Positions 19,655-53,589 of a stretch of 64,000 nucleotides of DNA are shown here, in pieces. The first letter of the stretch is position 1, and each line of letters opens with the position of its first letter. The stretch comes from Mustelus asterias. Its lineage: Eukaryota. The stretch covers positions 3,968,001 through 4,032,000 of the forward strand of contig NW_027590117.1 of assembly GCF_964213995.1 (NCBI RefSeq), written 5' to 3'. The notes under the pieces were generated by a model that was given only the letters and a program-made list of their open reading frames with translations, ran no database searches and had not been told where the DNA came from. The position numbers were made by a program, and so were the translations under genes.

Positions 19655-20093
19655 ATTGCTTCTTTCCTTGCACTATTCCTTTCTGGCACGAAAACATAAC
19701 TGGTGAAGTGGTCCAACCATGGCGAGCAAAATAAATTAAATAGTCTTGGATTCAAAGAAGAACTTAAGAACTTGGAGCAGGAGTGGTCCATTTGTCCCCT
19801 CGAGCCTGCTCCGCCATTCAATAAGATCATGGCTGATCTTTTCAGGAAAACTTCACACAAATGATCAGTCGGTGCATTCTCCTTTGCCTGTGTGTGATCT
19901 TGTGTATGCTGACAGTCTCTCGCTGTTTTTGTGTGTATTTCTGTTATTGTTCCATTCTTGGTGTTTAGACAGTGGAATTGTGCCGCTAGGCGGAGCTGCT
20001 GGGCACATTTGCTGTCATTAAACAGCAATACGAAAGTGATTTTTTTTGCTTTGCTATAGCGCAACAATAATAAACAGAACCTTGTTGGTAGAT

Positions 20094-20165
20094 AGCAGAG
20101 TGGCGCAGCGGAAGCGTGCTGGGCCCATAACCCAGAGGTCGATGGACCGAAACCATTCTCTGCTA
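20094..20165 (+). tRNA. tRNA-iMet(CAT), two substitutions relative to the canonical vertebrate initiator
   Basis: AGCAGAGTGGCGCAGCGGAAGCGTGCTGGGCCCATAACCCAGAGGTCGATGGAcCGAAACCATtCTCTGCTA; the T-loop ATCG is changed to ACCG, altering the B-box; T-run downstream. Confidence 0.9.
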
Positions 20166-22698
20166 TTTACGTTTTCAGGATCAGTTTAAAAAAAATTGCT
20201 GCTCCCCGCAAATATCACTGCTATTTCTTTACAGGCTACAGTTATTTTCATCAGCTCTCGCTTGCAATCAACAATTTAGTTTGCAACATGCTCACTGTTG
20301 TAAATGCCACAAACACAGGTTTTCTCTTTTTATCTCAGGGCATTTATGACAGAGAAATGACCCAAAAATCATAGAATCCCTAAAGCGCTGAAGAAGGCCA
20401 TGGGGCCCATCGAGACTGCACCAACTCTCCGACAGAGCATCCCACCTAGGCTCTTTACCCACAGCCCCACGCATCTACCCCGCTAATCTACTTAACCTGC
20501 ACTTCTTACGACACCAGGCACAATCTAGCATGGCCAGTCCACCCAGCCTGCACATCTTTGGACTGTGGAAAGAAACTAGAATATCTGGTTTCCAGACATA
20601 GCTTGCCTGGGTAAATGCAGCTTCAACAACACTGGCCGTTTGACACCATCCAGTCCAAAATATCTGACTTAATTTGCTTCCATCCACAAACATTCAATCC
20701 CTCCAACACCGACAAAAAGGGACAGAAGAGCGCACTATCCAAAAGATGCACTGCAGGAATTCACAAAGGCTCATTTGACAGCACCTTCCAAACCCACCTT
20801 GACTATGGTCTGAAAGGAAAAGGGCAGCAGACATATCAGAACAACACCACCTGGAATTCTCCCTCCATACAACTCACTATCCGGACTTGGAAATATATTG
20901 TCATTCCTTCAGCGTCAGCAGATAAGAATCCAGGGAGTTTGCATTCCACCCACCCCACCCCCTCCCCCCAAACAGCACCGTGGGTGTACCTGCATGACAT
21001 TGATGCCAGCAGTCGAAGCATGCAGTTCAGATGAGCAATAAATCCTGACCAAACCAGCAATGCCCGAGTCTGAAGAATGCACAAAATGAAATAAAAACAA
21101 CTGATCAAAAAGGTTCCTCCTCATCTCCGTCTTAACTGGGAGATCATTTAAAAAACAAACTCTGCTTTTCTGGTCCCATTGTCAGTGTAATTCTGAGCAC
21201 AATCGGGATTGTTTAGTCAACGTTGTCCCATTGCAGAATCATATTGTGCAGTAGTGACCTGCCTGGTGGTGTATACGGTACGATTTGTCCCTATGATTCA
21301 CTGCATCCCCGTAGATATGGGCTGCCCAAGTCACACAATCAGTGTTAGAATTAATTCACATGTTTCAGTATCTGGTACCATTCTGTATCTGAATTTGTCT
21401 GGCGTTGTTTCTGAGGGTGTCTCACACTCATGAAGTGTGTGAGTGTGGGATCATTCTAGATCTGTCAATGCCTCTCTATGTCTGTGATAATTTTGTATAA
21501 ATGTTGGAATCATCAATACCTTTAAGTCCCCTGGTGCTGTTTGTGAAACATATGCTTTATGTTCCCTGGTACTGTTTGTAGAACATCAGCTTAATGCTGT
21601 ACCTTTCAGCGGAACTAATTATGTTTGCAAGTCTATACTGCTGTTTAAACTGATGGTTTCAGTTGAGATTTTTCAGTCACGTCTCTCTCTCTCTCTCTCT
21701 GATCGTCCATTTGTATTCATGACTCAATGTGAGACTGGGATTCTTTCCAAATCTCTCAGTGATACAATTGTTGTGTGTAATGTTTTTCGTATCACTCATG
21801 ACAGCTCCAGTGAGTGAGTGCAGTGAACAGCCTGTATATTTCAGCTCCTGACACTGAACACGTGATTGAGAACGATTCTCTTATCTATCAGTCTTTGCTA
21901 TTTCGTGTTAGTTTGGGATGAATTAAATCACATTCAGTCCCTGGGACTATTTATAAGTTTGGATTAATTCCAAATAACTTTCCAGCACAGAAACAGGCCA
22001 CTGATGCAGTAGGTTTTAAACAGACAATGTGAGTGAGTTTCGGTCCAGCATTAAATCTCTGTCAGTGTGAATACAATTGTGAAAGATAATGTATCCTTCA
22101 ATCTGATACTGGATTGCTATGCAAGTTTCACTCAGGTTGTTCACCTTGATTTGATCTGTGACACTCAGTCGGATTCCAAATAAGAATTTTGACATGAATA
22201 CAAAATGGAGTCCAACCTGGAATTGGACAGTGTCTTCCATCTGGCCCAACGTGAGTGAGGATTTAGGATGAGTTCATAATTTATATTTCAGTTCATAGTC
22301 ATCAAATTGATCTTGCAACTTTTAGTTTCATAATCTGGGTGAGTTTTCAATGGAATCTGAGTTGTATCCCAGGTTAGACGAGCTTTCAGAATATCCCAAT
22401 CTGAGAATCTGTACTTCAGATTTGGATTTGTATCGAATATATTTGTGAGGACTCACTATGAGGATTAGTACAGTAACTTCCAAACCCCTGATGTGGGTGA
22501 TATGACTGGTATTGAACTCGAATCTCAGAGTGCATTATTAAGGTTAATTGTCTAATTTTTAACCGAAACCATCTGTCAGTTTTATCTGATATTTAATTTG
22601 GAGCTAAGGCTGCACTATTGTGGGATTGACACAGTGATGATCTGATTGTGGATGACAATTTGGATTGGGTTTTATGGATTCCCCTATCAGTGGTACAG

Positions 22699-23483
22699 TG
22701 GAGTTTAATTTAGATAAATGCAAGGTGATGCATTTTCATAGATCGAATCAGGGCAGGACCGACTAAGTTAATGGTAGGGCGTTGGGGAGAGTATAGAACA
22801 AAGAGATCTCGGGGTACATGTTCACAGCTCATTGAAAGTGGAGTCACAGGTGGACAGAATGGTGAAGAAGGCATTTGGCATGCTTTGTTTCATTGGTCAG
22901 AACATTGAATACAGGAGTTGGGACGTCTTTTGAAGTTGTATAAGACATTGGTAAGGCCACATTTGGAATACTGTGTATAGTTCTGGTCACCCTAATATAG
23001 AAAGCACAGAAAAGATAGACTCGGATCCTACCAGAACTTGATGGTTTGAGTTATAAGGAGAGGCTGGATAGACTGGGATTTCTTTCTCTGGAGTATAGTC
23101 GGCTTCGGGGTGATCTTAGAGGTCCATAAAATAATGAGGGGCACAGGTCAGTTCGACAGTCAATATATTTTTCCAAAAGTAGGGGAGTCTAAAACTAGAG
23201 GACATAGGTTTAAGGTGAGAGGGCAGCGGTACAAAAGGGAAGTGAGGGGCAATTTTTTCACACAGAGGGTGGTGAGTGTCTGGAACGAGCTGCCAGAGGT
23301 AGTAATGGAGGAGTATAAAATTTTGTCTTTTAAAAAGCGTTTAGACAGTTACATGAGTAAGTGGCTATCGAGGGATATGAGCCAAGTGCGGGCAATTGGG
23401 ACTAGTTTAGCCGTTAAAAAAGGGTGTCATGGACAAGTTGGGCCGAAGGGCCTATTTCCATGCTGTAAACCTCTATGACTCGA
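22699..23483 (+). mobile_element. CR1 3' fragment with 8-bp TSD
   Basis: ORF 23110-23478 (FFTQRVVSVWNELP); TGGTACAG at 22691-22698 and 23484-23491; empty site in the right arm (~48845). Confidence 0.9.
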
Positions 23484-23639
23484 TGGTACAGAGTTTGATT
23501 TGATTACTTCTTGTTTCATGAATTGGTATGCAGTGAAAATCTTGTTTCTTGCGCGCTATACAGACAAAGCATACCGTTCATGGAGTAGATAGGGGAGAAC
23601 GAAAGGAGAGGGTGCAGAATGTAGTGTTAAAAATCCATT

Positions 23640-23707
23640 TGCCAAGAGTGGGGTTCAAACCCATTGGATCTATAAATCCAACGCCTTAACCACTCGACCA
23701 TCCTGGT
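23640..23707 (-). pseudogene. tRNA-Leu(TAA) pseudogene
   Basis: Mirror of 48605-48687. The variable arm is deleted between two TGG repeats, and the anticodon loop and T-loop are mutated. Confidence 0.88.
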
Positions 23708-23999
23708 ACGAGAGCTGGGCATGATATGGACACAACACCTGTCTCTGCTGCTGTTTGAGCAGTGACTTGAAAAGGCGTCTCTGGAATTATTTCTGCTGTC
23801 CTGAGACTGAGCTCCGTCAGTGACAATGTGCGGACTGTGTGTGAGAAGGTCTCTTCTCTGTAACTAGTGCGGAGGAAATATCACATTTATTATGGTTCAT
23901 TCAAATATTTGTCTGTGGAAACAAAGTACATTTAATATCTCAAATACAGATTCCGTCAGTTTAATCTCTATTAATAATCATTGTGAGCGGTTTGTGAGG

Positions 24000-24135
24000 C
24001 TGCAGCCAGACTCGAGCTCTGATTGGTCACTCACATTTCAATCACATTCTTAACCAATCAGAGAGCCAGGGAGAAGAAATGGGAGGCTCTGATTGGTTCA
24101 CATTTTGAAACTGGAAAAGCCCGCCAATTTCAGTG
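24000..24135. promoter_or_regulatory. Histone/cell-cycle-type promoter motifs with no adjacent gene
   Basis: Three CCAAT/ATTGG boxes, TTTGAA and CCCGCCAA (E2F-like); mirrored at 48205-48345. Confidence 0.5.
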
Positions 24136-24994
24136 CAGGAAAAATACAAAATAACGGAACTATTTCAATCTCACACTTTATAATCTGTTTATTGTATTTT
24201 CCCTCAGAATCCTGGCGCTATTTTAGGAACAGTTTGAATTTCTCAATCTCTGATCTATAACCCGCGGTAATCAGACCCCGTTCAGCAATTTAAAACGGAG
24301 CAAATCTCAGCTCAGTGGAAAAGCAGAAACATAGAGATCACCAACCAACCCCTTCACACAGGCTTCACAGGGACAGAGGGAAACGGCTGATTTCTGATCC
24401 TCTCCCCTGAAATCGGCCGGGAATGTTACAATGGGAAGTGCGGAGAGAATCCCCGGCCCGATCCCGCCGGTGGAACAGGCAGCTTTGTGTCCGGAGAATA
24501 GGGAGCGCCGGGGGGAGGCAGATCTTAAAGCGCTGCAATGAACTCAGGTCCTGTGTGTGCACAAATCTGGCTGAGTCCGTCCTCTGGGAAAGCTGCGGAA
24601 TAAACAGATCAGCCCGAAAATAACCTTTTCATTTCCGTCTGTACTCTGTTGCGGGAGCGACTCCCAGATCACCCGAAATAACGAATAAATAATCGTATTA
24701 TGAATTTAATTCTGCTGCTGCGAAACTGTGAATATAGTTATCATTAAATCTAAAGAACTACCTTCCGATGTGGTGTTTCTCCTCATTGTCCATCATAAAT
24801 CCCAGACTAGAATTTACCATCCGCTCTCAGTTCAGTTTGATTGTCCCTTCAATGTGAAAGTGTGTGTAAGGGGCGGGTATGAAGTCCCATTCACAGCATT
24901 CAGCACCGGGACAAATCTCTATCCTCCAGAAAGACATTTCTCATTCACTCAATAAGGGAAAAGATGGCGCAGCTTTTTCACAGAGATTGTGGGT

Positions 24995-25010
24995 GGCTCT
25001 TAAAAGAGCC
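24995..25010 (-). terminator. Histone 3' stem-loop
   Basis: GGCTCTTTTAAGAGCC followed by ACCCA and a purine-rich element (GAAAAAG). Confidence 0.95.
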
Positions 25011-25047
25011 GTTGTGTTTGGAGTGTTTTTCAGTCCATGGGGGAGTT

Positions 25048-25434
25048 TTACTTGGAGCTGGTGTACTTGGTCACCGCCTTTGTCCCTTCCGACACGGCGT
25101 GCTTGGCCAGTTCCCCGGGCAGCAGCAGGCGCACGGCGGTCTGGATCTCCCGGGAGCTGATGGTGCTGCGCTTGTTGTAATGGGCCAGGCGGGAAGCCTC
25201 ACGCGCGATGCGCTCGAAAATATCGTTCACGAACGAGTTCATGATGCTCATGGCCTTGGAGGAGATGCCGGTGTCGGGGTGAACCTGCTTCATCACTTTG
25301 TAGATGTAGATGGAGTAACTCTCCTTCCTCGACTTTCGCCGCTTCTTACCGCCCTTTGTTCCCGGTTTCTTAATCACTTTTTTCGCCCCCTTCTTGGGAG
25401 CTGGTTTCGATGTTTGTTTCTTCTCATCAGCCAT
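25048..25434 (-). CDS. H2B: Replication-dependent histone H2B (128 aa)
   Basis: [46 protein letters not shown]; intronless; stem-loop downstream; ATG at 25434. Confidence 0.97.
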
Positions 25435-29310: not shown

Positions 29311-30667
29311 AGGTAGATACATCAATCACAGGATTTTAACAAAACACACCACTCACAGATATAAAACATTGTGTCATGTTGGTCACAAATTGAATAAGAA
29401 TTCATAGCCAGAATAGACAAAAAAATGATGTTGTGATACTAAAAAAAATTGCAATTAATGACCTCAGAATATAGGTTTTGATACATTTTGTAAACCAATC
29501 CAAAAATCTCAATGAGTCAAACTGAAAGATGCAATGACAATTCTGTTACTACAAACTGCAGTAATTAATTACCAGGTGATGTATCCAAATGTTACCATTC
29601 ACAGAGCTATAAATTGAATACCATTTGCACAACTTAAAAACAGCTACTGAATATAACCCATGACTGTAAAATGTACCCAAATCCATGTGATAAATTGAAT
29701 CAAATGGCAAACAAATATCAATGCATTATGTTTTAAATAAATAGTTTCTAACACAGTGCCTGAAATGCATGTAAAGTTAAAGTGCAAAAGTATCCCACAT
29801 TTCAATACATCACAAGGAACAACTGTAGAAGGATTGATTCCTACACTTGCAAAGATAACGAGAGAATCACAGATGTAAATTTAATCCTACATTCACAAAA
29901 TCCCAAGAGACAGATGGAAGAACAAGGAATTCCATAACATACTCATGAATGACAACGACAGAATGATTCTTACACCCAAACGTTCATCAGAGGAAAAGTG
30001 AAACAAAATGAACTCCACACTCACACGGTATCAGCAAAGTAACATTTACAGAATGAATCCTGTAGTCGTACACAGCACCACAGGAACAGAGATACAGAAG
30101 GAAAATAACTTCGAGCTGCTGTACCAGGGATGGATACAAACAGTATGAATCACACACTCATGTTCTTACTCAAAATCTGAAGACTGCAAAACTGAAATCA
30201 AACTCATGTTGACTTCATGGCAAACTGAGGAACAGAATTAACCCCATATTAACATACAACAGCGGAGACTGACATAGTGCCAGAGTCACAAAATCATGTT
30301 CATCTCATCTCACACATGCAGACGGACAACAGTGTCCAATACTTATAGGCACAAAATTAATCTCATTCTTTATAAGAGATGGAGAGATGCAGATTGAGTC
30401 CCACACTCAGCCTCACTGAGTTGTTGCAGTGTATCTCACGGATGGTACACATTGTGCACCAGTGGCTGAGGAATTAAATGCTGAAGCTGGTGTGCAAGTG
30501 AAACCCAAAATATTATTTTGTTTTTGAGATTCTTTCATGTTGTTGGAGATGCACTTACCCAGTGAGTGGAGAGTATTCCATCTCTGACCTGACATGCGAC
30601 TTTTCAATTGTGGAAAGTCTTTGGGGAAATAAAGGGTCAGTCACTAGCTGTGGACATGCTCTGCTCT

Positions 30668-31300
30668 TGTAAGGAATAATCATTAAGACAACATATATTG
30701 GAAGGAATAATTATTAGGACAAGTAGGAGATAATAATTAACATAGAAGAGATAATCACTACTTAAGAAGTTCTCATATATATCACATATCTTATTAAGCA
30801 TACACATGGATACTCGCATAAATGAACATAGAAGCTGAAAGTAATTTCTTAAATAAACGTGAGAAAGTCAGACAACGGGAAAAAAGACTTGGCATAGCAG
30901 GATGCCCTACAATGGTTGAACAAGCAACAACCTTGGCTGATTAGACAATAAACTTCAGATAAGAAGGCAGGATGTAACCACAGTGATATCATAGCACATT
31001 CATTCGTGAAAAAACAGAAAGAAGGCAGATAACGTAGGTCTAGTAAATCATGGTGGCTAACAAAAAGTGGCCTTGGGGTCTGCAACAAAAAAACCTTGAC
31101 TGTAAGATAAGAATGATGAAATATGAAGCTAAATGTGGATAAAAAGGACTGTGAGAGCACTGGTTTTTTGGATTTCATCTGGGAATCCCGGCTTTATTGA
31201 AATGTACTAGCTAATAAAGCCTTGCTGCCTGGAAGATCAAGACTCAGACTCTCTATTCTGATTGATGAATTCTTCTTGCCGTCCACGGGGAACCACGGCA
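30668..31300 (+). repeat. 5' LTR (633 bp)
   Basis: TG..CA termini; AATAAA at ~31213; one mismatch seen against 38536-39168 (A31062/G38930). Confidence 0.96.
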
Positions 31301-31304
31301 AATT

Positions 31305-31323
31305 TGGCGGTTGCGAGCAGGGC
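31305..31323 (+). promoter_or_regulatory. Primer-binding site, tRNA-Ser-like
   Basis: TGGCGGTTGCGAGCAGGG resembles the complement of vertebrate tRNA-Ser(TGA/CGA) 3' ends. Candidate major splice donor AAG|GTAAGC at 31421/31422. Confidence 0.7.
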
Positions 31324-31981
31324 AGAGTTGAGGTCGTCCGGTGACTCAACCCCGGAGGGATCGAGGGAGACGGTGGTCCGACCGGAACCGAGAAGTCCCC
31401 AGCCGGCCTTCTGTCAACAAGGTAAGCAGACTTGCATGCATGTAAATCCTTGTTGTCAGAAAGGGGTTTTCGAGGCCTGGCGCACCCGGTTCTCCACTGG
31501 TCCTGGATCTCACCTGCCCAAAAGATAACCTGCATTGGTAAAGTTAAAATTGTGTAAAATATTGAGAGACTGAGTCTGATCGGAAGGGCAAATTTTGCAT
31601 GTAAAAAGCACGCTTTAGTTTTATGTACTGTATTGTCCACGAATGGGTAAAAAGTGAGACGCTACAAAAACCGAACGCTAATTGATGCAATTAGGTTAGT
31701 CGAGCGGTTAGGAGCGGGCTTCCAGGTTACGACTTGCCCAAGGAGAGTAAGTGTAGGCAAGCCTGCCAGTCCAAACCTACCCAGGACCTCGGAGAGAGTG
31801 ACGTCAGCCGAGAGGAAGGAGAGATCTAGGAGAGATTGCTCTCCTACCTGATATAGTAATTAAGGACCTACGTTGATCGCCGGAAGAAGAGAGGGGATAG
31901 GTAGTGAAATAAAGTAAAGGGGCTACAAGGAGAAGCCTGAAAAGGTTGATCTGGAATAGCGGTGTAAGCAGCTGTTGGTAA

Positions 31982-33547
31982 ATGTGGAGTGCAAAGCAGG
32001 ATCACGACAGTGATGAATCACGTAGGAATATTGCAGTAATAGATTTCTTAAGTAGTGGTGTTAACACACATTTTTTTAGAGAAGATCTAGTAAAAATAGT
32101 TGGAGGAGGTTTTAGGGAGTGGTATGAGGGTGAGAGAAATGCCCTGCTAAGAAGAATAACTGAAGTAGTTAATTTGGAGGAAGTGAATAAGGAGTGGCCA
32201 TACGTAAATTGGGACGAAATAATATACAAAAATTGGACGAGTGAAGCAGTAGAAGAAACATTGACAGAATTAATAGAAGAAATCAGACCAAGTAAGGCTC
32301 TGTTGGAAATCAGTGAGCAAGTGGAGGCATATTATCCACTAGCAGAAGAAAAAGGATTATCACCAGGAGAGGGAAGAACAGGGAAGCAAATACTGAGACC
32401 TCGGTTGGAAATACAGGTGTCAGTCAGGGAAGTGCAGTGGGAAGATAGGCCAAGGACAGAAAAAGGGAAAACAGTATATCGCATAAAAATAACAATAGTG
32501 CCAAATACCAACATATCAGAAAATATTAAGCCGCAAGGCAGTGCAAAGAAACAGAACATGCCATATCAAACTAAGACACCGGTGGAAATTCTGGGAGAAA
32601 AGTACCCAGCCCTGAAAGGAGACATAGCCCATATCTCCCAAAAATGGACCAAAAGAACAAGTAAATTAAACACACAGTGGCCAGAGGGAGGCACCTGGTG
32701 TACAGAAAGATGTGAGGATCAGAAAGGACTGGTAAAGAACTATAAATTAAGGGGTAAATCACAAAAGAGAAATCAGAAAAGAAAAAAAGAATTGGAGATA
32801 CTAACATTATTTGAAAAGGAAGGAAAAGAGAAAAAGCGCATATGGAAAATGCAAATGCCAGTTCAGATTCAGGAAAAGGAAAAATTGAAAGACCCACATA
32901 TAGCCCCGCCCCCTTATAAGGAAAACCAAGATTTTGCTGGGCTGTATCCAGTAATAAAGGGGACAGTGAATTTTGAGGGGGAATATGAAGAAAGGGACAT
33001 GACCCGCGAACAATGGGCAAAGCAGGAGGTGGAAAGAAAGGTAAAAAGGGAAGAAGAAGGTGCTAAAGTGGAAGGAGAACTGGATAACATACGCCGTATG
33101 AGGCAAGAGTTAGAGGAAGAGTTGGTTCGGGTAAGGGTGTTAAAATGGGCAAATAGAAAAATGGAGGAAGAACAGAGTAAGAAAGGTGAGGAGGCAGTGG
33201 ACAGTCAGGCAAGGTGTGAAGAGGAGGAGGGTAAGGAAGAATGGGATGAAAAATGTAAATATAGCAAGGGAAGTGCAGGAGGAAAAGGACAGGGACAGGG
33301 AAAAGCACCCTATCAGAACCAGAGGGGACAAAACCAAGGATATAATCAAGGCCCCAGGCAGGGAGGACCACCTGGCCCTCCAGGGGTATGCTGGGGATGT
33401 GGGGAAACAGGACACATAAAAAGGAATTGTCCCCAAAACAGCTATAGACAAGGAGGTCAACAACAAATGAGTCAGCAAATGATGCAAGTGCCAACCAGTG
33501 ACTGCCCAATGAGTCAGGGGCCAGTAAATCACCAGAGTTTCCTATAG
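31982..33547 (+). CDS. gag: Gag-derived ORF (521 aa): unknown leader, MA-like region, PPPY, CCHC knuckle; no recognisable capsid
   Basis: TPVEIL..KW..WPEGGTW (MA-like); PPPY at 32906-32917; CWGCGETGHIKRNC at 33389-33430; ends TAG-GGA in frame with pro. Confidence 0.85.
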   Translation: MWSAKQDHDSDESRRNIAVIDFLSSGVNTHFFREDLVKIVGGGFREWYEGERNALLRRITEVVNLEEVNKEWPYVNWDEIIYKNWTSEAVEETLTELIEEIRPSKALLEISEQVEAYYPLAEEKGLSPGEGRTGKQILRPRLEIQVSVREVQWEDRPRTEKGKTVYRIKITIVPNTNISENIKPQGSAKKQNMPYQTKTPVEILGEKYPALKGDIAHISQKWTKRTSKLNTQWPEGGTWCTERCEDQKGLVKNYKLRGKSQKRNQKRKKELEILTLFEKEGKEKKRIWKMQMPVQIQEKEKLKDPHIAPPPYKENQDFAGLYPVIKGTVNFEGEYEERDMTREQWAKQEVERKVKREEEGAKVEGELDNIRRMRQELEEELVRVRVLKWANRKMEEEQSKKGEEAVDSQARCEEEEGKEEWDEKCKYSKGSAGGKGQGQGKAPYQNQRGQNQGYNQGPRQGGPPGPPGVCWGCGETGHIKRNCPQNSYRQGGQQQMSQQMMQVPTSDCPMSQGPVNHQSFL

Positions 33548-33923
33548 GGAGGCCCAGAGAACCCCGAAATGGTAGGCCAGTATGTACAAATAACGGACAC
33601 AGCAAATCAAGAACCTGTAATCAATGTTAGAATAGGGGGGGTTGAGATCCCCATGATGATAGATACAGGAGCTACTTGTACGTGCATACAAGAAAAATAT
33701 GCAGGACACCTACCATTGTCAGGTCAGTTTGTAAAAACTATGGGGTTCTCGTGGAAAGCAGTATTGACTCAAATGACGATGCCGGTGCCTATCACCGTTG
33801 GAAACAAAACCACTCATGTGCCTGTGTTAGTATGCAATAAAACACCACTGAATTTGTTAAGATGCAATCTTAGGGTTAGGGTTAAAATTAGAGTGTACAA
33901 CTCAAGGAATTAATCTGACGGGC
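33548..33923 (+). pseudogene. pro: Retroviral aspartic protease, frameshifted
   Basis: MIDTGA active site; TPLNLL is followed by a small deletion at ~33860 where GRD is expected, breaking the frame into pol. Confidence 0.9.
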
Positions 33924-36320
33924 ATGTACGTAATTAGGGTAAGGGGAGAAGAGTGGGCCAATGTATATTGGCTAGGGGACATAGAAGAACAAATTAAAAA
34001 GCAGGTATGGGAAATTTGGGGGACATTTGTAGAGGCACAGATTCCAGACGCCGAATGGCCAAAAACTGAACTACATAGCACAATGATTTTTGATAAAATA
34101 CAACAGTCAGAGATACAGGAGAAGTGGAATAAAGAGGCAGGACAAGAACAGGAAATAAATTCGGACAGCATTTTAATCGGACCAGAGGGAACAGCCCTCA
34201 CAATTAGAAAGAATGAATGGGTCAGAAAATGGTTCTCAGTGCCTGAGACAGAACCACATGTTACGCTAAAGGTGAATCCTGATTACAGACCAAAGGATTT
34301 GGGACTTATGACGTTTAGGGCACAGGAACTGGAATTTATTAAAGCAAACAATGAGAATATTTGGATGTCGACTGACGGACAAATGATGAAAATATCTGTT
34401 AATGCAAGGATGACTGGAAGACCAAAAGAGGTAAAAATAGAGTTAAAAGATAAAGAAGTAGAGCAAGAATGGAGAGCAAAGTTAGAAAAAGATTTAGATT
34501 CTCTCCCTGAGGAATTGTGGTCAATGAACGACACAGATGTAGGCAAAGTTAAAACAGCTACCCCAGTCGAAGTAAAATTGAAGCCAGGATGTCAAGGACC
34601 TTATAAACCACAATATCCAATCAAGGCAGAAGCAGTAAAAGGCATAAGAGAAACAATCAGAGGATTAGTAGACGCAGGGGTGTTAAAAGAAACCCGAAGT
34701 AAATGTAACACACCCTTATTACCAGTTAAAAAGGCAGATGGGGAAAAGTGGAGGTTAGTACACGACCTGAGAGCAGTTAATGAAGTAGTTGAAAATATGC
34801 CAGTAGAAGTCCCTAACCCCTACACCTTATTGACTAACATACCGTCTGAAAGCAGATGGCTTACAGTAATAGACTTATGCTCAGCATTTTTCAGTGTGCC
34901 CTTGGCACAAGCGAGTCAGTACTTATTTGCTTTCAAGTACAAGGGAAAGTACAATAGAATGCCACAAGGATTCAAACACTCCCCACATGTATTCAACCAA
35001 GTGTTGAGAGCAGATTTGGCAGGGATACAACTAGAAGGAACACTGATACAATATGTGGATGACTTGTTGTTGTGTACAGAAACAAAGGAACAGTGTCGGG
35101 AAGAAAGTTTAAAACTGCTGGGAAAGCTGGCGAAAGGAGGACATAAAGTGTCAAGAAATAAATTACAGTTCTGTCAAAGAAAAGTAGAATACCTTGGAAG
35201 GGAAATAACTGTTGGACAAAAAAGAATAGCTCACCAGCAGATAGAAGCAGTATTGAAAATCCCAAAACCACAGACAGTGAGACAGATGATGACATTCTTA
35301 GGAATGACAGGATTTAGTTCAGAATGGATAGAAAACTATGCAGAAAAAACACAAGCGTTAAGGAAAATAATGAAAGAGGCCGGATGTGAGGAGTTAAAAG
35401 TGATCTTGATATGGGACAGGGAGGCCTCAGAAGCATTTGATAACGTGAAACAAGAGATGGTGCAAGCACCAGCACTGATGCTGCCTTCGTATGATAAACC
35501 CTTTGACCTTTTTGTTAGCAACAGGGAAACAGGATTCGCAACTGCTGTGTTAATGCAGGACAGCTGTAAAGGAAGAAAGAAACAAGCAATAGCTTATTAT
35601 AGCACCAAGTTAGATGATGTGGCCCTGGGGTACCCTCCATGTTATCAGGATTTGGCAGCTGCTTGGTGGGCTTACGAAAAAGCAGCTACCATCACAATGG
35701 GATATTTAATAAACATACATGTACACCACAAAGTAGCTGAATTGATTGAGCAAGGAAAATTTGTGCTGACACCTGCTAGGATCCATCATTATCGAATGCT
35801 AACCACATTCCCAGATATCACGATAATAAAGTGCAACAGAGTAAATCCAGCTGATTACATGCCATTACCTCATGAAGGAAAAGAACATGAATGCTTAAGA
35901 GAAGCAAAAACATTTATGAAACTGAGAGAAGACTTAAGAGCAGAGGGACTAGTGACAGAAGAGAAGAGGACACTGTATGTAGATGGCTCATGCTACAGGG
36001 ATCACTTGGGAAACCACGCAGGCTATGCCATAGTTGAACAAAGACCAGGAGGACTTGAAGTTATAGAAGCAGAAAAATGTGAACAGCCCTGTTCGGCCCA
36101 ACTAGCAGAACTTAAGGCACTAACCAGAGCATGTGAATTAGCAAAAGGGGAGGCAGTAGAAGTGTATACAGATTCGGCTTATGCACATGGAGTGTGTCAT
36201 CTGTTTGGATCAATCTGGAAACAGAGAGGCTTTATGAAAAGTAGTGGGGGACCAATACAGCATGAAAGTCAAATAAAAGCCTTAATACAAGCTATGATGG
36301 GCCCAAAAGAATTGGCCATA
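33924..36320 (+). pseudogene. pol: pol: 2H-like domain, RT and RNase H; integrase deleted
   Basis: LHST and PHVT motifs; RT motifs NTPLLPVKK, DLCSAFF, MPQGF, YVDD; RNase H motifs YVDGS, SAQLAEL, YTDSAY; homology stops at KELAI. Confidence 0.92.
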
Positions 36321-36609
36321 ATATTTGGAATTGGCTTGATAATGTATTCGGACAATGGGGAGCATGGTTTGCAAAGGCGGGGTTATAATGGTAGTAGTAA
36401 TAATCATAATTGGACTAATCTTTTGTTGTTTACTGCCTGCTTTGAGATCTTTTATTACCAGACTAATGATGCGACAAATGGTAGTGCGAATGGAGAATGA
36501 ACAAATCCCCGAACAAGAAGTCCAGGAATGGGGTCAAGTTGAATTACCCCCACCGAATAGACTCATGATAATTTTGATTGAGACTGACGCTCCTTGTTTT
36601 GCAATGTAG
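36317..36609 (+). pseudogene. env: C-terminal remnant of a first env (membrane-proximal region, TM helix, tail)
   Basis: HNIWNWLDNVFGQWGAWFAKAG, a 1-nt shift, then VIMVVVIIIIGLIFCCLLPALRSFITRLM; PPT-like AAAAGAGGGGAA at 36623-36634. Confidence 0.72.
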
Positions 36610-36922
36610 CACTAAAGACTGCAAAAGAGGGGAAGATCTGTTTCAATGCGTTAAAAGAAGATGGAAATTTGATTTGTATACCAGTGATCAGTATGTTCCT
36701 TCCTCAGGAACAAGGACTGTTGACACAAACTCTACCGCTCAAGTTCATGGTTCATCGAATTCGACCCAGGAAACTGAGCTATCAACTGAACTGACAAAAC
36801 AAGAGAAATCACTGAAATTGAAGCTGAAAGACTGTATAAACTAAATAGTAGTAGCGGCGACTAAGCGCGGGAAAAGAATTGTGTAAACTGTGATAAATTG
36901 TACTCTCCCTCCTTGTGATAGC

Positions 36923-38209
36923 ATGGGAAAAGTAGGGGTAGGATGGATGGGGATAATACTAGTACTTAGTATGGGGGGTGGCAAGAGTAAAAATGAACAG
37001 GAAGAAGACAGATCGCATATAAATACTTACCTATATATGTCATATATGTATGCAGAAAGATTGAACATAAGCAAATGTTGGGTCTGCACTCATGTCCCAA
37101 GCCATTCCCAAGAAGGCCTACCACTCCAGTCTCTCCCCTTTCAGATTTCAGAAACTATAGAATGGATATTGAGACAAAATAAGACAGGGGAAGGAGGAAA
37201 CATGACAATGTGGGAGTCAGCTGGGTATAGAATGACCAGGTTTGCTACATGGTACCAACCAACTTACAACCATTCCCAGTTCCCACCTGTACCGACGGTC
37301 CTAAAATCAAATGGACCAGGATCCTTCTGTTTAAAGAAAAATGTGGATGGAGCAAGAGTTGGAGAAAGTAAATGTCAGCAAACTGTAGAATGGCAACCAC
37401 CTGTGAAAGATTTAAGTGCAGCTGGTATGTTCAAAATAGACTGGACTGAAATATGCAACATCACATCAAGCAACGTGTGGGAAGGAAAAGCTGTACAACC
37501 TTAGATGACGTTGGCTGATAACTTTACGGCCTACAATGGAACTTACTTTATATGCGGTACAAAGGCATATCCCTGGCTTCCTGCGAACTGGACAGGCTCC
37601 TGTTATCTGGGATATGTAGTGCCCTATATGCACCACATGCCTTCCCTACGAAGCTACCCTTCGCGAGCAAAACGAACAATCAGTAAGATTGACTGGTTCT
37701 TTATGATGGCCTTTCCATTACATGGGACAGGAAGAACGGCAAACGAGTTAATTCTGATGGCCACAGCCCTGGAACAACTGGCTAATATCACTGCAGCTGA
37801 AGCTCGATAAACAGGGCAAGCCTTGACAGAAGTATCAGCAGAACTGATGGCAGTCCGCACAGTAGCCCTGCAAAATAGACTGGCTTTGGACTATCTATTG
37901 GCCTCGCAGGGAGGAACATGTGCCATAATTTAACAAGAATGCTGTACTTACATACCAGATAAATCTGAGAATATAACTAACCTTGCAAAGCATATCAAGG
38001 CACAAGCAGACCAACTCCAAAAGATAGGTCACGAATTCCATGATTATAACCCACCTGGATGGTTAGGATGGGTGGGAAATGGGATGTTTGATTGGATTTT
38101 TAAATCATTTATGTTACTGCTGCTTATAATAGTAGAGATAGCGTAAGCAGGATGCTTATGTCGATGTGTAATTAACAGGGCAATGGACAGCATGTACCAT
38201 TATCAATAG
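36923..38209 (+). pseudogene. env: Second env, full span with in-frame stops
   Basis: Signal peptide, CWVC, furin site RAKR, immunosuppressive domain LQNRLALDYLL, CX6CC and TM helix; stops at 37502, 37808, 37931 and ~38144. Confidence 0.93.
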
Positions 38210-38535
38210 TTTGAAAATAAGAGGAGATAATATGACCCTAGATACCATACGCATAGAGGGAAATACTTAAATGATCAAGCAAAATCAAGGAGGGAGAGAT
38301 GTGTGAGTACAAAGTGTATGAAATGTATTAATGCAAAAATGTATTTTAATGAACTATCAGGTAAAGGAAATCTGGAGGAGCAGTTCGCAATTAGGCTATT
38401 AATAAACAAAAAGGGATATTGATCCTACACTTAAGCTCCTCCACATTTCGTGAAACCAAACATAACTAAGACATATATTGGGAAAATATATCAAGAAATA
38501 GTTTAGTGAGACAATGATGTCTCAAAGAGGGGATA

Positions 38536-39168
38536 TGTAAGGAATAATCATTAAGACAACATATATTGGAAGGAATAATTATTAGGACAAGTAGGAGATA
38601 ATAATTAACATAGAAGAGATAATCACTACTTAAGAAGTTCTCATATATATCACATATCTTATTAAGCATACACATGGATACTCGCATAAATGAACATAGA
38701 AGCTGAAAGTAATTTCTTAAATAAACGTGAGAAAGTCAGACAACGGGAAAAAAGACTTGGCATAGCAGGATGCCCTACAATGGTTGAACAAGCAACAACC
38801 TTGGCTGATTAGACAATAAACTTCAGATAAGAAGGCAGGATGTAACCACAGTGATATCATAGCACATTCATTCGTGAAAAAACAGAAAGAAGGCAGATAA
38901 CGTAGGTCTAGTAAATCATGGTGGCTAACGAAAAGTGGCCTTGGGGTCTGCAACAAAAAAACCTTGACTGTAAGATAAGAATGATGAAATATGAAGCTAA
39001 ATGTGGATAAAAAGGACTGTGAGAGCACTGGTTTTTTGGATTTCATCTGGGAATCCCGGCTTTATTGAAATGTACTAGCTAATAAAGCCTTGCTGCCTGG
39101 AAGATCAAGACTCAGACTCTCTATTCTGATTGATGAATTCTTCTTGCCGTCCACGGGGAACCACGGCA
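38536..39168 (+). repeat. 3' LTR (633 bp), preceded by PPT
   Basis: AAAGAGGGGATA at 38524-38535, then TG..CA copy of the 5' LTR. Confidence 0.96.
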
Positions 39169-39541
39169 AATTTGGCGCTGCGAGCTCTATATTTAAAGCC
39201 ACAGTCACATTGTGACAGGATACGAAAAGAACCTTGGAGTCATTTCTCATTAATTACAGTCACAAAATGATGACCATGCTGAAACATAATTAAAGATGTA
39301 AATTGTGAGGAAGAGTAGGCCATTCAGCTCTTTGAGCCCATATTGTCACACAATGAGGTCATGGCTGATTTTCCACTTCAACACCATTTCCCTGCTGTAT
39401 CGCCATATCCCTTGATGTTACTAATACGTAGAAATCTATCCATCTCACTCATGAACTTAATCAACAAGTAAGACTCCACAGCCCATTGGACTGATAATTC
39501 CAAAGAATCACCCACTCAGGGAAATAATTCCACCACATTAG

Positions 39542-39878
39542 GGGCGGCACGGTAGCACAGTGGTTAGCACTGCTGCTTCACAGCTCCAGGGTCCCGGGTT
39601 CGATTCCCGGCTCGGGTCACTGTCTGTGTGGAGTTTGCACATTCTCCTCGTGTCTGCGTGGGTTTCCTCCGGGTGCTCCGGTTTCCTCCCACAGTCCAAA
39701 GATGTGCGGGTTAGGTTGATTGGCCAGGTTAAAAATTGCCCCTTAGAGTCTTGGGATGCATAGGTTAGAGGGATTAGCGGGTAAATATGTGGGGGTAGGG
39801 CCTGGGTGGGATTGTGGTCGGTGCAGACTCGATGGGCTAAATGGCCTCCTTCTGCACTGTAGGGTTTCTATGATTTCT
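39542..39878 (+). mobile_element. Young HE1-like SINE
   Basis: A and B boxes (GGTTCGATTCC) and CR1-like tail (TTTCTATG); nearly identical to 44313-44649. Confidence 0.92.
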
Positions 39879-44312: not shown

Positions 44313-44649
44313 TAGAAACATAGAAACCCTACAGTGCAGAAGGAGGCCATTCGGCCCATCGAGTCTGCACCGACCACAATCCCACCCAGGCCCTACCCCC
44401 ACATATTTACCCGCTAATCCCTCTAACCTATGCATCCCAGGACTCTAAGGGGCAATTTTTAACCTGGCCAATCAACCTAACCCGCACATCTTTGGACTGT
44501 GGGAGGAAACCGGAGCACCCGGAGGAAACCCACGCAGACACGAGGAGAATGTGCAAACTCCACACAGACAGTGACCCGAGCCGGGAATCGAACCCGGGAC
44601 CCTGGAGCTGTGAAGCAGCAGTGCTAACCACTGTGCTACCGTGCCGCCC
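44313..44649 (-). mobile_element. Young HE1-like SINE in the H2B promoter
   Basis: Reverse complement of 39542-39878 with few differences. Confidence 0.92.
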
Positions 44650-44812
44650 CGTGGATCATTGGGTCTGAGTAATATTTAAAATTAATTAACTGGTTCCTCA
44701 CCCTCTCTGGGTTTAGATCTCAGAAGCGTTGATATTCGGTCCCTTTTCCAGGCTTTAAAAGAGGAGTTCCGAGCGCGACTCAGTGATTCTGTGTCTGAAA
44801 TTAACTGTGACA

Positions 44813-45190
44813 ATGGTGGATGAGAAGAAAGCGCCGGTTGCCAAGAAGGGCGCTAAAAAAACGCAGAAAAAGCTGCCAGCAAAGGGCGGCAAGAAGAGGA
44901 AAAGATCCAGGAAGGAGAGTTACTCCATCTACGTCTACAAAGTGATGAAGCAGGTTCACCCTGACACCGGCATCTCCTCCAAGGCCATGAGCATCATGAA
45001 CTCGTTCGTGAACGATATTTTCGAGCGCATCGCGCGTGAGGCTTCCCGCCTGGCCCATTACAACAAGCGCAGCACCATCAGCTCCCGGGAGATCCAGACC
45101 GCCGTGCGCCTGCTGCTGCCCGGGGAACTGGCCAAGCACGCCGTGTCGGAAGGGACAAAGGCGGTGACCAAGTACACCAGCTCCAAGTAA
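44813..45190 (+). CDS. H2B: Histone H2B (125 aa), intact ORF with damaged regulatory elements
   Basis: [44 protein letters not shown]. Confidence 0.95.
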
Positions 45191-45226
45191 AACTCCCCAA
45201 TGGACTGAAAAGCACCCAAACACAAC

Positions 45227-45242
45227 GGCTGTTTTAAGAGCC
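45227..45242 (+). terminator. Histone stem-loop with stem mismatch
   Basis: GGCTgTTTTAAGAGCC: C>G at 45231 gives a G-G opposition. Confidence 0.9.
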
Positions 45243-45509
45243 ACCCACAATCCCTGGGAAAAGGCTGTATCATCCATTTAGTTTCAATTATTATTTTACG
45301 ACGCAGCGTCTCGAACAATGATAATTGTTGTTTTTCTGGTTATCAATGATAGACACGGAGTCAATCGCCCCGTGGATCATTGGGTCTGAGTAATATTTAA
45401 AATTAATTAACTGGTTCCTCACCCTCTCTGGGTTTAGATCTCAGACGCGTTGATATTCGGTCCCTTTTCCAGGCTTTAGAGAGAGAGCGAGGTAATGGAG
45501 CAAATGTGT

Positions 45510-45745
45510 CAGAATCATCGAATCCCTGCAGTACAGGGGGCCATTTGGCCCATCGAGTTTGCACCGACAACAATCCCTCACCCATCCTCGTAACCCTAAA
45601 TATTTACCCTGTTAATCCCCCTCATACTGGGGCAATTTAGCATAGCCAATCCACCCAACCCGCATACCTTTGGGCTGTGGGAAGAAAGCGGAGTGCCCGC
45701 AGGAAAACCACGCGGAATCGGGGGGAAAAAGTGCAAACTCCTCAG
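45510..45745 (-). mobile_element. HE1-like SINE fragment
   Basis: GGCCATTTGGCCCATCGAG..GTGCAAACTCC similar to the other copies; further fragments at 20370-20580, 42565-42690 and 51230-51430. Confidence 0.75.
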
Positions 45746-46515
45746 TTTCCAGTTTGGTCTCAATGACCGATCAGTTTATTCCCGATAAGCCCCGGTTGTG
45801 CAGGAACCCTCAGTCTCGACGAAGATGGAGAACAGCCCGTCCGTTTGCAGAACGATGTCAATGAAACGTTCTGGCGGCTGGTTCGAGAGTTTGAAAAAGA
45901 AAGAGATTAACCCCGAATGTATCCCGCATTCGAAAAGCAAATCTGCAACTTGGGATAAAACGTGAAATTGTGCAAACACAGACTGATGTTTTAAAAACGT
46001 TGTTGATAGATAGTTAATTATTGATGGGATTTGTTATTAACCGTATTTCTTGTTTGAGAAATATATCTGCGAAGTTTCCAAATTTGAATAATTTATTTTC
46101 GGCTTGTTTTCAGATAAACCCAGACTGAAAATCAGAGACTGCCAGATACAGGTTAACTATAGACTGGGGAAGAGAGAAAGGGAGATTCTTACATTACTCA
46201 AAATGAATTCACCATTACCGATTAGAATAATTTCCGAAACTCTTGTTCTTTCCGCTTTGGCGGCTTTTACAGTTTGAAATGAAATCGGTTGGAATCTGAG
46301 ATTTTGGCGCCGTTATTTTCCGCCCTCACTCCGTGGGCTCTCCGGATTGGTGAGTTAAGCAGATTTCTGATTGGTCATATGAACAAGATGCTGAGAGGCA
46401 GCAACAAAGTGACCAATCAGCAATGTCCACACCTCCATTCCTCCCGGAGCAAGAAGAGAAGCGAAAGGGAGTGGATTTCAGCATTCTTTGTGAAAGTGTT
46501 TGTGAGATTGTGTAG

Positions 46516-46905
<390 letters not shown>

Positions 46906-46935
46906 AGCGGCCATTCTTTAATCTGATAACCCAAA

Positions 46936-46951
46936 GGCTCTTTTCAGAGCC
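46936..46951 (+). terminator. Histone 3' stem-loop
   Basis: Consensus GGCTCTTTTCAGAGCC. Confidence 0.96.
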
Positions 46952-47073
46952 ACTCATTTTATCTGTAAAAGGGTGATCTGTTTAACCGTCAGAGACACTG
47001 CACTGCTATTCACAGTAGAGCTGTTTCTCGCTTTGCTTTATCAATCCGTAGTTCGCCCTGTGCACATTATTGA

Positions 47074-47147
47074 TGATGTGGAGATGCCGGCGTTGGACTG
47101 GGGTGAACACAGTAAGAAGTCTCACCTGGTGTTGTGAGACTTCTTAC
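47074..47147. mobile_element. 74-bp Penelope-like insertion
   Basis: Internal inverted repeat GTAAGAAGTCTCAC; TSD CACATTATTGA at 47063-47073 and 47148-47158. Confidence 0.85.
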
Positions 47148-47334
47148 CACATTATTGACCCAGGTGTTTTAATGCATGTAAATTTATGCTATTTATTGGA
47201 GAACATTTTACATATGTTAGAAATATCATTTCCAGCACCATGTCTGAGGTAATTATTTAAATACAGGTACACAATTGCCCCAGAGTGAGAAACAGCATCA
47301 AAGATTGATGGCTGAAAAACAACTCAAACTCAAC

Positions 47335-47350
47335 GGCTCTTTTAAGAGCC
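47335..47350 (+). pseudogene. Orphan histone stem-loop (H2B 3' UTR without CDS)
   Basis: GGCTCTTTTAAGAGCC in context matching the H2B 3' UTR at 24960-25040; no histone ORF upstream. Confidence 0.85.
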
Positions 47351-48604
47351 AGCCACAATCTCTGAAAAATCTGCGCCATCTTTTCCCTTATTGAGTTAAT
47401 GAGAAATCTCTTTCTGAAGGATAGAGATTTGTCCCGTTCCGGAATGCTGTGAATGGGACGTCATATCCGCCCCTCGCACGCACACTCAGATTGAAGGAAC
47501 AATCAAACTGAACTGAGAGCAGATTTTAAACCCCAGTCTGGGATTTGTGACGGACAATGAGGCCCAGCACAATATCAGGATGTAATTATTTACATTTAAT
47601 GATAACTATATTCAGTTTCAGAATAAGGTTTTTTTTTCACTCGAGTTATCTGGGCACCGCTCCCGGAACAGAATAAAGGCGGGAATGAAGAGGTTATTCT
47701 CGGGCTGATCTGTTTATTCCGCAGTTTTCCCAGAGGACGGAATCAGCGAGATCTGTGCACACACAGGACCTGAGTTCATTGCAGCGCTTTAAGATCTGCC
47801 TCCCCCCGGCGCTCCCTATTCTCCGGGCACAAAGCTGCCTGTTCCACCGGCGGGATTGAGTCAGGAATTCTCTCCACACCTTCCATTGGAACATTCCCGA
47901 CAGCTTTCAGGGGAGAGGATCAGAAATCAGCCGTTTCCCTCTGTCCCTGTGAAGCCTGTGTGAAGGGGTTGGTTGGTGATCTCTATGTTTCTGCTTTTCC
48001 ACTGAGCTGAGATTTGCTCCGTTTTAAATTGCTGAACGGGGTCTGATTACCGCCGGTTACAGATAAGAGATTGAAAAGTTCAAACTGTTCCTAAAATAAC
48101 GCCAAGATTCTGTGAGGGAAAATACAATAAACAAATTATAAAGCGTGAGATTGAAATAGTTTCCTGAACATTCAGGCGTTCCGTTATTTTGTATTTTTCC
48201 TGCACTGAAATTGGCGGGTTATTCCAATTTGAAAATGTGAACCAAACAAAACCTCCCATTTCTTCTCCCTTGCTCTCCGATTGGTGAAGAATTGGATTGA
48301 CATGGGAGTGTCCAATCAGAGCTCGAGTCTGGCTGCAGCCTCGCAAACCGCTCACAATGATTATTAATAGAGATTAAACTGACGGAATCTGTATTTGAGA
48401 TATTAGATGTACTTTGTTTCCACAGATAAATATTTGAAGAAACCAGATATTTCCTCCACAGGAGTTACAGGGAAGAATGTCCCAGCTTCTTCTCACAATT
48501 CCACAGTCTCCGAGAACAGAAATGATTCCAGAGGCACGTTTTTAATCCAGCAATCAAACAGCAGGAATGGCAGACGCTGTGTCCCTATCACGTCTAGTTT
48601 TCGT

Positions 48605-48687
48605 ACCAGGATGGCCGAGTGCTAAAGGCGTTGGACTTAAGATCCAACGGACATATGTCCGCGTGGGTTCGAACCCCACTCCTGGTA
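48605..48687 (+). tRNA. tRNA-Leu(TAA), D-loop variant
   Basis: ACCAGGATGGCCGAGTGcTaAAGGCGTTGGACTTAAGATCCAAcGGACATATGTCCGCGTGGGTTCGAACCCCACTCCTGGTA; the conserved D-loop GG is GC; T5 run downstream. Confidence 0.92.
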
Positions 48688-50262
48688 GAAGGATTTTTAA
48701 CACTACATTCTGCACCCTCTCCTTTCCTTCTCCCCTATATACTCTGCGAACGGTATGCTCGGTCTGTAAAATGCGCAAGAAACCAGAGTTTTCACAGCAT
48801 AGTAATTATTTCTTGTCACAATAAGAAATCAAATCAATCTCAATACCGCTGACAGGGTGATCCATAAATCCCAGTCCAAACCATTATCAGATCATCACTG
48901 TGTCAATCCCACAATAGAGCAGCCTTAGCTCCAAATTCAGTATCTGATAAAACCGTAAAATGCTTTTTTGGTTAAATGTTACACAATTAACCTTAATAAT
49001 GTACTTTGAGATTCTAGTTAAATACCAGTCACATCACCCACATCAGGGGTTTGGAACTGGCAGTACTAATCGCCATGGCGAGTTCTCACAAATACATTAG
49101 ATACAAATCTGAAAGACAATCTCAGATTGAGATATTCTGAAAGCGAGTATAACCTGAGATACAAACTCAGGTTCCAGTTGAAAACTCACCCAGATTATGA
49201 AACTAAAAGTTACAATATCAGTTTGATGACTATGAACTGAACCATAAATTATAAACTAATCCTCACTCAGACTGAGCCAGATGGAAGACACTGTACCAAT
49301 TCCAGACTGAGCTCCATTTTACACATGTCAAAATTCTTACTCAGAATCAGACTGTCACAGATCAAATCAATGTGAACAACCTGAGTGAAACTTGCATAGC
49401 AATCTAGTATCAGATTGAAGGATACATTATCTTTCACAATTGTGTTTACAGTAACAGATTTATTGCTGGGCATAAACTCACACATTATTTGCTTCAAACC
49501 TACTGCATCAGTGGCCTATTTCTGTGTTGGAAATTTATTTGGAATTAATCCAAATAGAGAACTTGTCCCAGAGATTGAAGGTTATTTAATTAATCCCATA
49601 TTCACACAAAATACCAAAGACTGATAAATACGAGAATAGTTCTGAATCGCATGTTCAGCATCAACAGCTGAAAAGTACAGGCTGTTTACTGCACTCACTC
49701 ACAGGAGCTGAGTCTGAGTGATATGAAATAAATCACACACACACCAATTGTATCACTGAGGGATTTGGAAACAACCAAAGGCTCACACAGAGTAACGGAA
49801 ACAAATGGAAGATTAGACAGAGAGAGACGTGAGTGAAAAATCCCAAATGAGACACACAATTTTAAACAGCACCATAGATTTACATACATGATTAATTCCA
49901 CTGACAGGAACAGCATGAAGCTGATGTTCTGCAAACAGCACCAGGGAATTAAAGCATATATTCCAGAAGCAGCAGCAGGGGATTTAAAATTACTGATGTT
50001 TGCCACACTTATATAAAATGCTCACAGATATAGAGGCCATTGACAGGTCTAGAATGATCCAACACTCACACACTTTATAAGTGTCTGCCAGATATATATA
50101 ACTGGCACCTTCAGAAATAACACCAGACAAATTCAGATACAGAATGGAACCAGATACTGAAACATGTGAATTGATTCCAACACTGATTGTGTGTCTTGGG
50201 CAGCCCATACCTACGGGGATATGGTGGATCATGACGACAATTCCAGGCAGGTCTCTATTGCA

Positions 50263-50461
50263 CAAATAAAAGCAAATTACTGTGGATGCTGGAATCTGAA
50301 ATCAAAAGAGAAAATTCTGGAAAATCTCAGCAGGTCTGGCAGCATCTGTAAGATGACAAAGGTCTTCGACAAAGGGTCGTCTGGACTCGAAACGTCAGCT
50401 CTTTTCTCTCCTTACAGATGCTGCCAGACCTACTGAGATTCTCCAGCATTTTCTCTTTTGG
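50263..50461. mobile_element. Short Penelope-like inverted pair (second family)
   Basis: Inverted CTCAGCAGGTCTGGCAGCATCTGTAAG; hammerhead-like GGGTC..GACTCGAAACGTC; right arm only. Confidence 0.7.
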
Positions 50462-51633: not shown

Positions 51634-51705
51634 TAGCAGAAAATGGTTTTGATCCATCGACCTCTGGGTTATGGGCGCAGCACGCTTCCGGTGCGCCACT
51701 CTGCT
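51634..51705 (-). pseudogene. tRNA-iMet pseudogene
   Basis: Mirror of 20094-20165 with five changes from canonical, including a broken anticodon-stem G-C pair. Confidence 0.85.
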
Positions 51706-53578: not shown

Positions 53579-53589
53579 TAACTAACCCA

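Follow-up and report, generated by a model that had tools for sequence, protein, structure and literature searches.

Does a single provirus of Mustelus asterias carry two different envelope genes in series, and how could the second have come to stand behind the first? The question is raised by an 8.5-kb endogenous retrovirus (ERV) at 30668-39168 in a stretch of 64,000 nucleotides (contig NW_027590117.1 of assembly GCF_964213995.1, positions 3,968,001 to 4,032,000), hereafter called the window. Coordinates are those of the window, and all features of the provirus are on the + strand. An initial annotation, made from the sequence alone, had proposed that the RNase H of this provirus jumps into the remnant of a first envelope gene (env1), that a second envelope gene (env2) follows, and that the second was captured by recombination between two retroviruses and the first later mostly deleted. 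We consider it likely that env2 was added behind a native env1, that the two-env form then spread, and that integrase and most of env1 were deleted later.

An env1 remnant and a full-span env2

The env1 stub (36312-36609, 98 codons) encodes a Trp-rich membrane-proximal segment, a transmembrane (TM) helix, a CCxxP motif and a cytoplasmic tail, with one frame break near 36374-36378. When the stub, with X at the break, was aligned to the env protein P0049, the score was 331, which none of 300 shuffles reached. The 21-aa piece ahead of the break scored 104 against the same protein, again with 0 of 300 shuffles as high. The 78-aa piece after the break gave one match among 21 candidates, and this was also P0049, a TLV_coat protein (BLASTP, 62% over 95%, E 6.5e-21). 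The membrane-proximal region, TM helix and tail of the stub are homologous to this protein. A search with P0049 returned 1660 proteins; the top one among the 150 listed was a 572-aa env of Mustelus asterias, P0171 (XP_078067312.1). The stub scored 263 against P0171, compared to 89 at most against 48 env2-class proteins. The immunosuppressive domain (ISD) and CX6CC motif of env1, which are deleted in the window, are present in P0049 and P0171. Lacking its own start and standing in another frame than pol, the stub is in this copy a relic and not a gene. Among the env1-class envs, the 1026-aa protein P0338 has an N-terminal part that by eye resembles two immunoglobulin domains.

The second gene, env2 (36923-38209), spans 428 codons with internal stops at codons 194, 296, 337 and 408, and matches Pfam TLV_coat at E 2.8e-18. 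It shows gamma-type Env features: a hydrophobic N-terminus, a CXXC motif in the surface subunit (SU; CWVC at 52-55), a furin site (RAKR at 248-251), an ISD, CX6CC at 333-341 with a stop inside it, and a TM helix. Its closest relative, P0002, is 425 aa long and 63% identical, and the short SU of env2 is regarded as natural because P0002 has a similar length. An env of Heptranchias is 41% identical to env2, and shark envs named 'PABLB-like/syncytin-like' are also among its relatives.

A full-span second env with a dissimilar TM region had been claimed initially, and the comparison of the two genes agreed with that claim. The protein alignment of the stub and env2 scored 32, with 86 of 300 shuffles as high, and the DNA alignment scored 21, with 144 of 200 as high. 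P0049 and env2 were 37% identical over a 78-residue TM core. For a TM tree, 19 of the 151 env1-class and 25 of the 48 env2-class proteins were chosen, 5 and 7 of which were dropped when the ISD pattern failed to cut them, and 33 rows including the stub were retained. The two env classes were separated with support of 100/99, and the stub joined P0049 and P0171 at 99/91, being 64% identical to P0049 over 66 tree columns. A clade formed by the stub and env2 was rejected (approximately unbiased test, p-AU 2.6e-7). Furthermore, no protein combining parts of both envs was found among the 151 env1-class or the 48 env2-class matches. Judged from the alignments and the tree, env1 and env2 are separate env lineages.

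The ESM Atlas gave no useful match for the env1 stub or the frame between the envs (scores 0.75-0.76). Neither P0002 nor P0049 found anything in viral contigs, and a metagenome scan with P0002 was likewise empty. The metagenome scan with P0049 returned one locus, L001, with a 625-codon env1-class frame; since it ends about 120 bases past that frame, it is uninformative on a second env.

Between the envs, a relic polypurine tract (PPT1, 36623-36636) begins 14 bases past the env1 stop. It has the 10-mer AAAGAGGGGA in common with the working tract (PPT2, 38524-38533), which lies directly ahead of the 3' long terminal repeat (LTR). This 10-mer has just two occurrences in the window, one at 36624 and one at 38524 (0.24 expected; 2 of 100 shuffles reach two), so that the resemblance pointed out in the initial annotation is borne out. 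The spacer behind PPT1 (36637-36922) showed no protein homology and no match to anything else in the window; no LTR copy was found in it, the best LTR match being 19 nt (E 2.4). The AGs ending at 36707 and 36921, the latter one base ahead of the env2 ATG, rank within the top 6 of 691 AGs by a rough ad hoc splice score. In the leader, a candidate splice donor (31419-31427, donor-like site at 31422) has 8 of 9 consensus letters, and an ad hoc scan found four sites as donor-like in the provirus interior, this one included. Env2 is probably expressed from the candidate acceptors in the spacer.

A frame of the spacer ends in SLKLKLK, and this ending had been compared to a gamma-type integrase tail. 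The letters are present, and an integrase signal was not obtained. In a tblastn search, none of 72 post-break Pol parts matched the spacer at an E better than 0.12. Against a profile of 48 integrase C-termini the frame scored 1.1 bits (36 of 300 shuffles as high), compared to 76.7 bits for the held-out control, and Pfam gave no MLVIN_C match in the spacer even at E up to 10. In 12 pairwise tests against four LKL-ending tails, the score of the proposed frame was reached by at least 33 of 300 shuffles. In another spacer frame, a single test gave 3 of 300, which was treated as chance. The proposed frame does align in register with one LKL-ending tail, and it lacks the W-x-H core. With no GP-x-V...W-x-H core, MLVIN_C match or profile signal, a gammaretroviral integrase C-terminus in the spacer is not supported.

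The deletion junction and copies in other sequencing runs

The pol gene (33861-36322) encodes reverse transcriptase (RT), the connection and a truncated RNase H, without integrase. Its frame loses RNase H homology after 36322, where the sequence passes directly into the Trp-rich segment of env1, as had been read initially. Among 119 Pol relatives, 99 align through that point, and the RNase H end continues in all 14 that were listed. The close Pol relative P0053 has 510 residues beyond the break point, integrase included. No integrase match at E up to 1e-3 was listed within the provirus.

Copies of the same block were compared in other sequencing runs. Part of the stretch is contained in 19 of 21 listed runs, under ten labels, one of them a metagenome; no RNA run is among these. 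Four runs from three organisms and four studies were compared over 35500-38700 at 80% likeness: X1 and X2 from organism A, and X6 and X10 from organisms B and E. The best-matching runs may include the window's own source. The contig comparison rests on the 40 of 253 differences that were listed, and the other 213 differences, 80 loose ends and 316 pieces lie beyond these.

In all four runs, some contigs leave the window sequence at 36322 and continue with a normal RNase H end as in the relatives; one contig of X10 is identical to the window over 36144-36322 and then runs 388 nt further. Among the loose ends listed, contigs entering at 36312 from foreign bases were found in two of the four runs, X6 (81 nt) and X10 (13 nt). 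Both extensions continue env1, and 7 of 9 residues matched P0049 when the 81-nt extension was read by hand in the env1 frame. Since loose contig ends stand on both sides, the 11 bases at 36312-36322, which are common to RNase H and env1, are the microhomology of a deletion junction. A contig of X2 passes the junction without a break at 36312, with 30 bases on the left side, so that in this run of organism A most of the sequence bearing env1 is of the deleted form. A deletion at the 11-base microhomology has therefore taken the end of RNase H, integrase and most of env1 from the window copy, and the later loss of env1 proposed in the initial annotation is supported. Template-switch deletions usually leave an overlap of this type. 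By comparison with P0053 and P0171, about 2.9 kb is estimated to be missing, and the undeleted form would measure about 11.4 kb, a size made plausible by the 11.2 kb given for ZFERV in the accessible part of PMC4977317.

The order env1-spacer-env2 was found in one 2063-nt contig of X10 over 36445-38555 and in one 1608-nt contig of X2 over 36293-37899; contigs of X6 cover 36312-36710 and 36793-37097. Across the three organisms, the block is about 96-99.6% identical to the window. It has replicated as a unit and is present in at least three related organisms. In X1, the main contigs over 36352-38562 have a depth of about 1,030-1,140, compared to about 16-50 on minor contigs, which suggests tens of copies, although depth cannot be equated with copy number. 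None of the four runs has, in its main contigs, the env1 frame break or the env2 stops at codons 194 and 408. The codon 296 stop is found in X1 record 6 and X2 record 23, which represent the main contigs in the two runs of organism A and all differences of which are accounted for elsewhere than at this codon. Codon 337 lies inside a short block where some contigs differ. Over 35650-36322, the RNase H of a sister subfamily is about 82-85% identical; in X1 and X2 this subfamily is about 5 times deeper than the present one, and it did not align to either env at 80% likeness.

Origin of the two-env layout

Its place immediately behind pol and the PPT after it make env1 probably the native gene, with env2 as the addition. 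In addition, the protein P0199 joins an integrase end 65% like that of P0053 to an env1-class TM, which supports this assignment. In Brienomyrus, the LOC numbers of a Pol relative (61%) and an env1-class env almost follow each other (125740321 and 125740327), and the contigs given for them are equally long. The view of env2 as an env foreign to this gag-pol rests on gene position, on P0199 and on the Brienomyrus pair.

The envelope capture of the initial annotation agrees with the separate lineages in the tree, and we offer the capture itself as the best reading. A virus with a native env1 would have taken up an env cassette from an unrelated retrovirus through a template switch between co-packaged RNAs. 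RT would most probably have started on the RNA of the second virus and, with the env cassette copied, crossed over to the first virus just behind that virus's PPT. Env2 would then have been added and not swapped in, and PPT1 would have been left as a relic. Env2 may have brought the candidate splice acceptors in the spacer, so that its own spliced mRNA would be possible. The two-env block would subsequently have been copied as a unit and spread among at least three related organisms. In organism A, RT may have produced the microhomology deletion of about 2.9 kb, and the resulting defective form was apparently multiplied by help supplied in trans. The family layout would accordingly be LTR-gag-pro-pol-env1-PPT1-spacer-env2-PPT2-LTR, with the window copy non-autonomous, and we hold this at the same strength as the whole scheme, that is, as likely.

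Several points weigh against this scheme. The donor of env2 was not found, which leaves the crossover without a position. Neither the rest of the window nor integrase gave a match to the spacer. P0035 pairs an env2-class env with a related Pol, which is more distant (RT 48% like P0053). The stub covers just 40% of the TM-tree columns and some branches are long. Contig depth is not equal to copy number, and the deletion in the main form of X1 is taken over from X2. No listed contig joins integrase, whole env1 and env2, the extra env1 amounting to 81 and 13 bases. The splice score is a rough ad hoc rank, and no spliced joint was seen in the contigs over 35500-38700, a stretch that excludes the candidate donor.

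The main rival is that the layout arose by an event at the DNA level in a host, either a nested insertion or an unequal crossover of neighbouring proviruses, and was then copied as a unit. It predicts the same final layout, the donor and crossover are not located, and the TG-like opening of the bases behind PPT1 could be what is left of the start of a lost LTR. However, the spacer holds no LTR copy, and the flanking LTRs are equal at 632 of 633 positions, so the later copying went via reverse transcription in any case. We therefore regard an origin at the DNA level as unlikely. Two other possibilities can be given almost no weight. Misjoining is common with repeats, and the layout might thus be an assembly chimera of two repeats, but contigs of other studies and organisms (X10, X2, X6) bridge env1 and env2, and the X2 contig bridges the pol junction with its 30 bases on the left side; a chimera is highly improbable. 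Still less probable is an env1 stub that duplicates part of the env2 C-terminus or has nothing to do with env. The stub and env2 alike have a Trp-rich segment and a TM helix, the stub reaches scores up to 89 with env2-class proteins, and Pfam alone gives it just Orthoreo_P10 (E 4e-4, below its cut-off). Nevertheless, the stub and env2 are no more similar than shuffles at the protein or DNA level, the scores of 331 and 263 point to the env1 class, and the single clade was rejected. Such a reading of 36317-36609, against which the two-env proposal had to be set, is refuted.

A different kind of alternative is that both envs were whole and useful together, whether by using two receptors or by combining entry with receptor interference, and that the layout was kept by selection and is not a passing intermediate. 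The block is kept in three organisms at the identities given above, env1 extends further upstream in organisms B and E, no run has the env1 frame break or the stops at codons 194 and 408 in its main contigs, and env2 has candidate acceptors of its own. However, a whole env1 was not seen in the listed contigs, the codon 296 stop is common to both organism A runs, and selection has had little time to become visible in so young a family. We regard the usefulness of both envs as possible but doubtful, and it adds to the addition of env2 behind a native env1 rather than replacing it.

The provirus, its surroundings and known systems

The provirus has the layout of a class I ERV, LTR-primer-binding site (PBS)-gag-pro-pol-env-PPT-LTR, with a gag stop in frame with pro. 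The 5' LTR (30668-31300) is 633 bp long, is bounded by TG...CA and has one mismatch with its partner, the 3' LTR (38536-39168). The PBS (31305-31322) starts with TGG and is presumably tRNA-Ser-like. Gag (31982-33547, 521 aa) carries PPPY and a CCHC knuckle, and its stop is followed in the same frame by the protease (33548-33913, Pfam RVP, E 1.2e-8). No Pfam capsid family was matched in gag, which may carry a second internal deletion. Between the protease and RT (33861-34500), about 200 residues with two HxT motifs gave no Pfam match at E up to 0.1; we take these motifs to resemble the 2H phosphoesterase/CNPase insert of some fish ERVs. CNPase ORFs (open reading frames) are mentioned in PMC4977317. 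At the unprocessed right end (39169-39188), 4 bases past CA and about 11 PBS-like bases precede a 5-base target-site duplication, the other copy of which is at 30663-30667. The PBS-like bases kept after the 3' LTR suggest an aberrant right end that retains part of a tRNA-primer copy.

Outside the provirus, a near-perfect palindrome lies at 58685-59771, with two 543-nt arms, 99% complementary and 1 nt apart, which is either an inverted duplication or an assembly fold-back. Nested inverted-repeat pairs (81-97%) at about 15600-25400 and 44800-55600 suggest a large old inverted duplication flanking the provirus. ARAGORN predicted tRNA-Met(CAT) at 20093-20166 and tRNA-Leu(TAA) at 48604-48688. Two copies of a 335-nt element, 99% identical and in opposite orientation, are found at 39541-39875 and 44316-44650; we assume that it is akin to the shark HE1 SINE (short interspersed nuclear element).

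The Pol is closest to fish class I ERV Pols, the top matches being 52-62% identical and the named ones belonging to teleosts and rays, and the closest named env relatives are from sharks, so that a cartilaginous fish is the likely host and the family is probably one of sharks. By its sequence, the family is a fish-type class I ERV, called epsilon-like from the Pol matches and from general knowledge of the group. The proteins closest to env1 are P0171 and P0049, and those related to env2 are P0002 and the shark 'PABLB-like/syncytin-like' envs. A probable precedent for the two-env layout is XTERV1 (Sinzelle et al. 2011), which is reportedly annotated with two env ORFs, env1 and env2. Its host class differs from that of the window provirus. 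XTERV1 of Xenopus tropicalis is described as an epsilon-type ERV in the accessible part of PMC8278194.

Fish ERVs with an epsilon-like Pol and a gamma-type Env are widespread, as far as the available text goes (PMC9967133; bioRxiv 10.1101/2021.11.23.469661). The ERVs-GTE of Chen et al. (bioRxiv 10.1101/2021.11.23.469661), which are class I ERVs in fish and amphibians, related to epsilon and bearing a gamma-type Env, are like the window provirus in their epsilon-like Pol, their gamma-type TM (ISD, CX6CC and TM region) and their several deep Env clades. Frequent pol/env incongruence from recombination is reported there. However, the available text of that work does not contain 'two env', 'second env', 'multiple env' or 'dual', whereas the window provirus has two Env lineages. 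Env swapping is established for type-D viruses, BaEV, RD-114 and XtERV-S according to the accessible parts of Henzy & Johnson (PMC3758190) and PMC10536682, in which a heterologous env was acquired, as is thought, from co-packaged RNAs. These sources, as far as available, speak of an env acquired or replaced and mention no old env as kept, whereas the window provirus keeps the old env and its PPT upstream. It has two env genes and two PPTs where the env-swap recombinants have a single env.

No two-env provirus was met in the accessible parts of PMC8672886, PMC8278194, PMC12690878 and PMC4131045, or of bioRxiv 2024.07.05.601823, 2024.03.17.585361 and 2020.12.18.423569. The existence of a two-env amphibian foamy ERV was not borne out by the available text of bioRxiv 10.1101/2020.12.18.423569. 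In titles and abstract starts, no provirus with two unrelated env genes was found, although the results were partly swamped by unrelated words and absence is not proven. Coverage of subscription papers and Repbase was thin, and the supplementary maps of the anamniote env survey could hold a precedent. The two-env provirus is a variant of a known process, env exchange.

Env exchange has been inferred almost wholly from mismatched pol and env trees, and the intermediate is rarely seen. The two-env family apparently represents env swapping at the stage where the newcomer is in place and its predecessor has still to be lost. It keeps both genes and both PPTs, together with the exact scar of the old env loss in one organism, and therefore the order of addition, spread and deletion can be read from natural copies across species. 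A recently replicating shark retrovirus of about 11-11.5 kb with two complete, separately spliced and deeply divergent env genes, which spread with both into several species, is a tentative further step. If it is true, it would be a natural two-envelope retrovirus and would reveal an 'add first, delete later' route of env exchange. If both envs were open at once, the family would challenge the one-env rule for retroviruses and make one ask how one virion or one cell can be shared by two trimeric fusion proteins.

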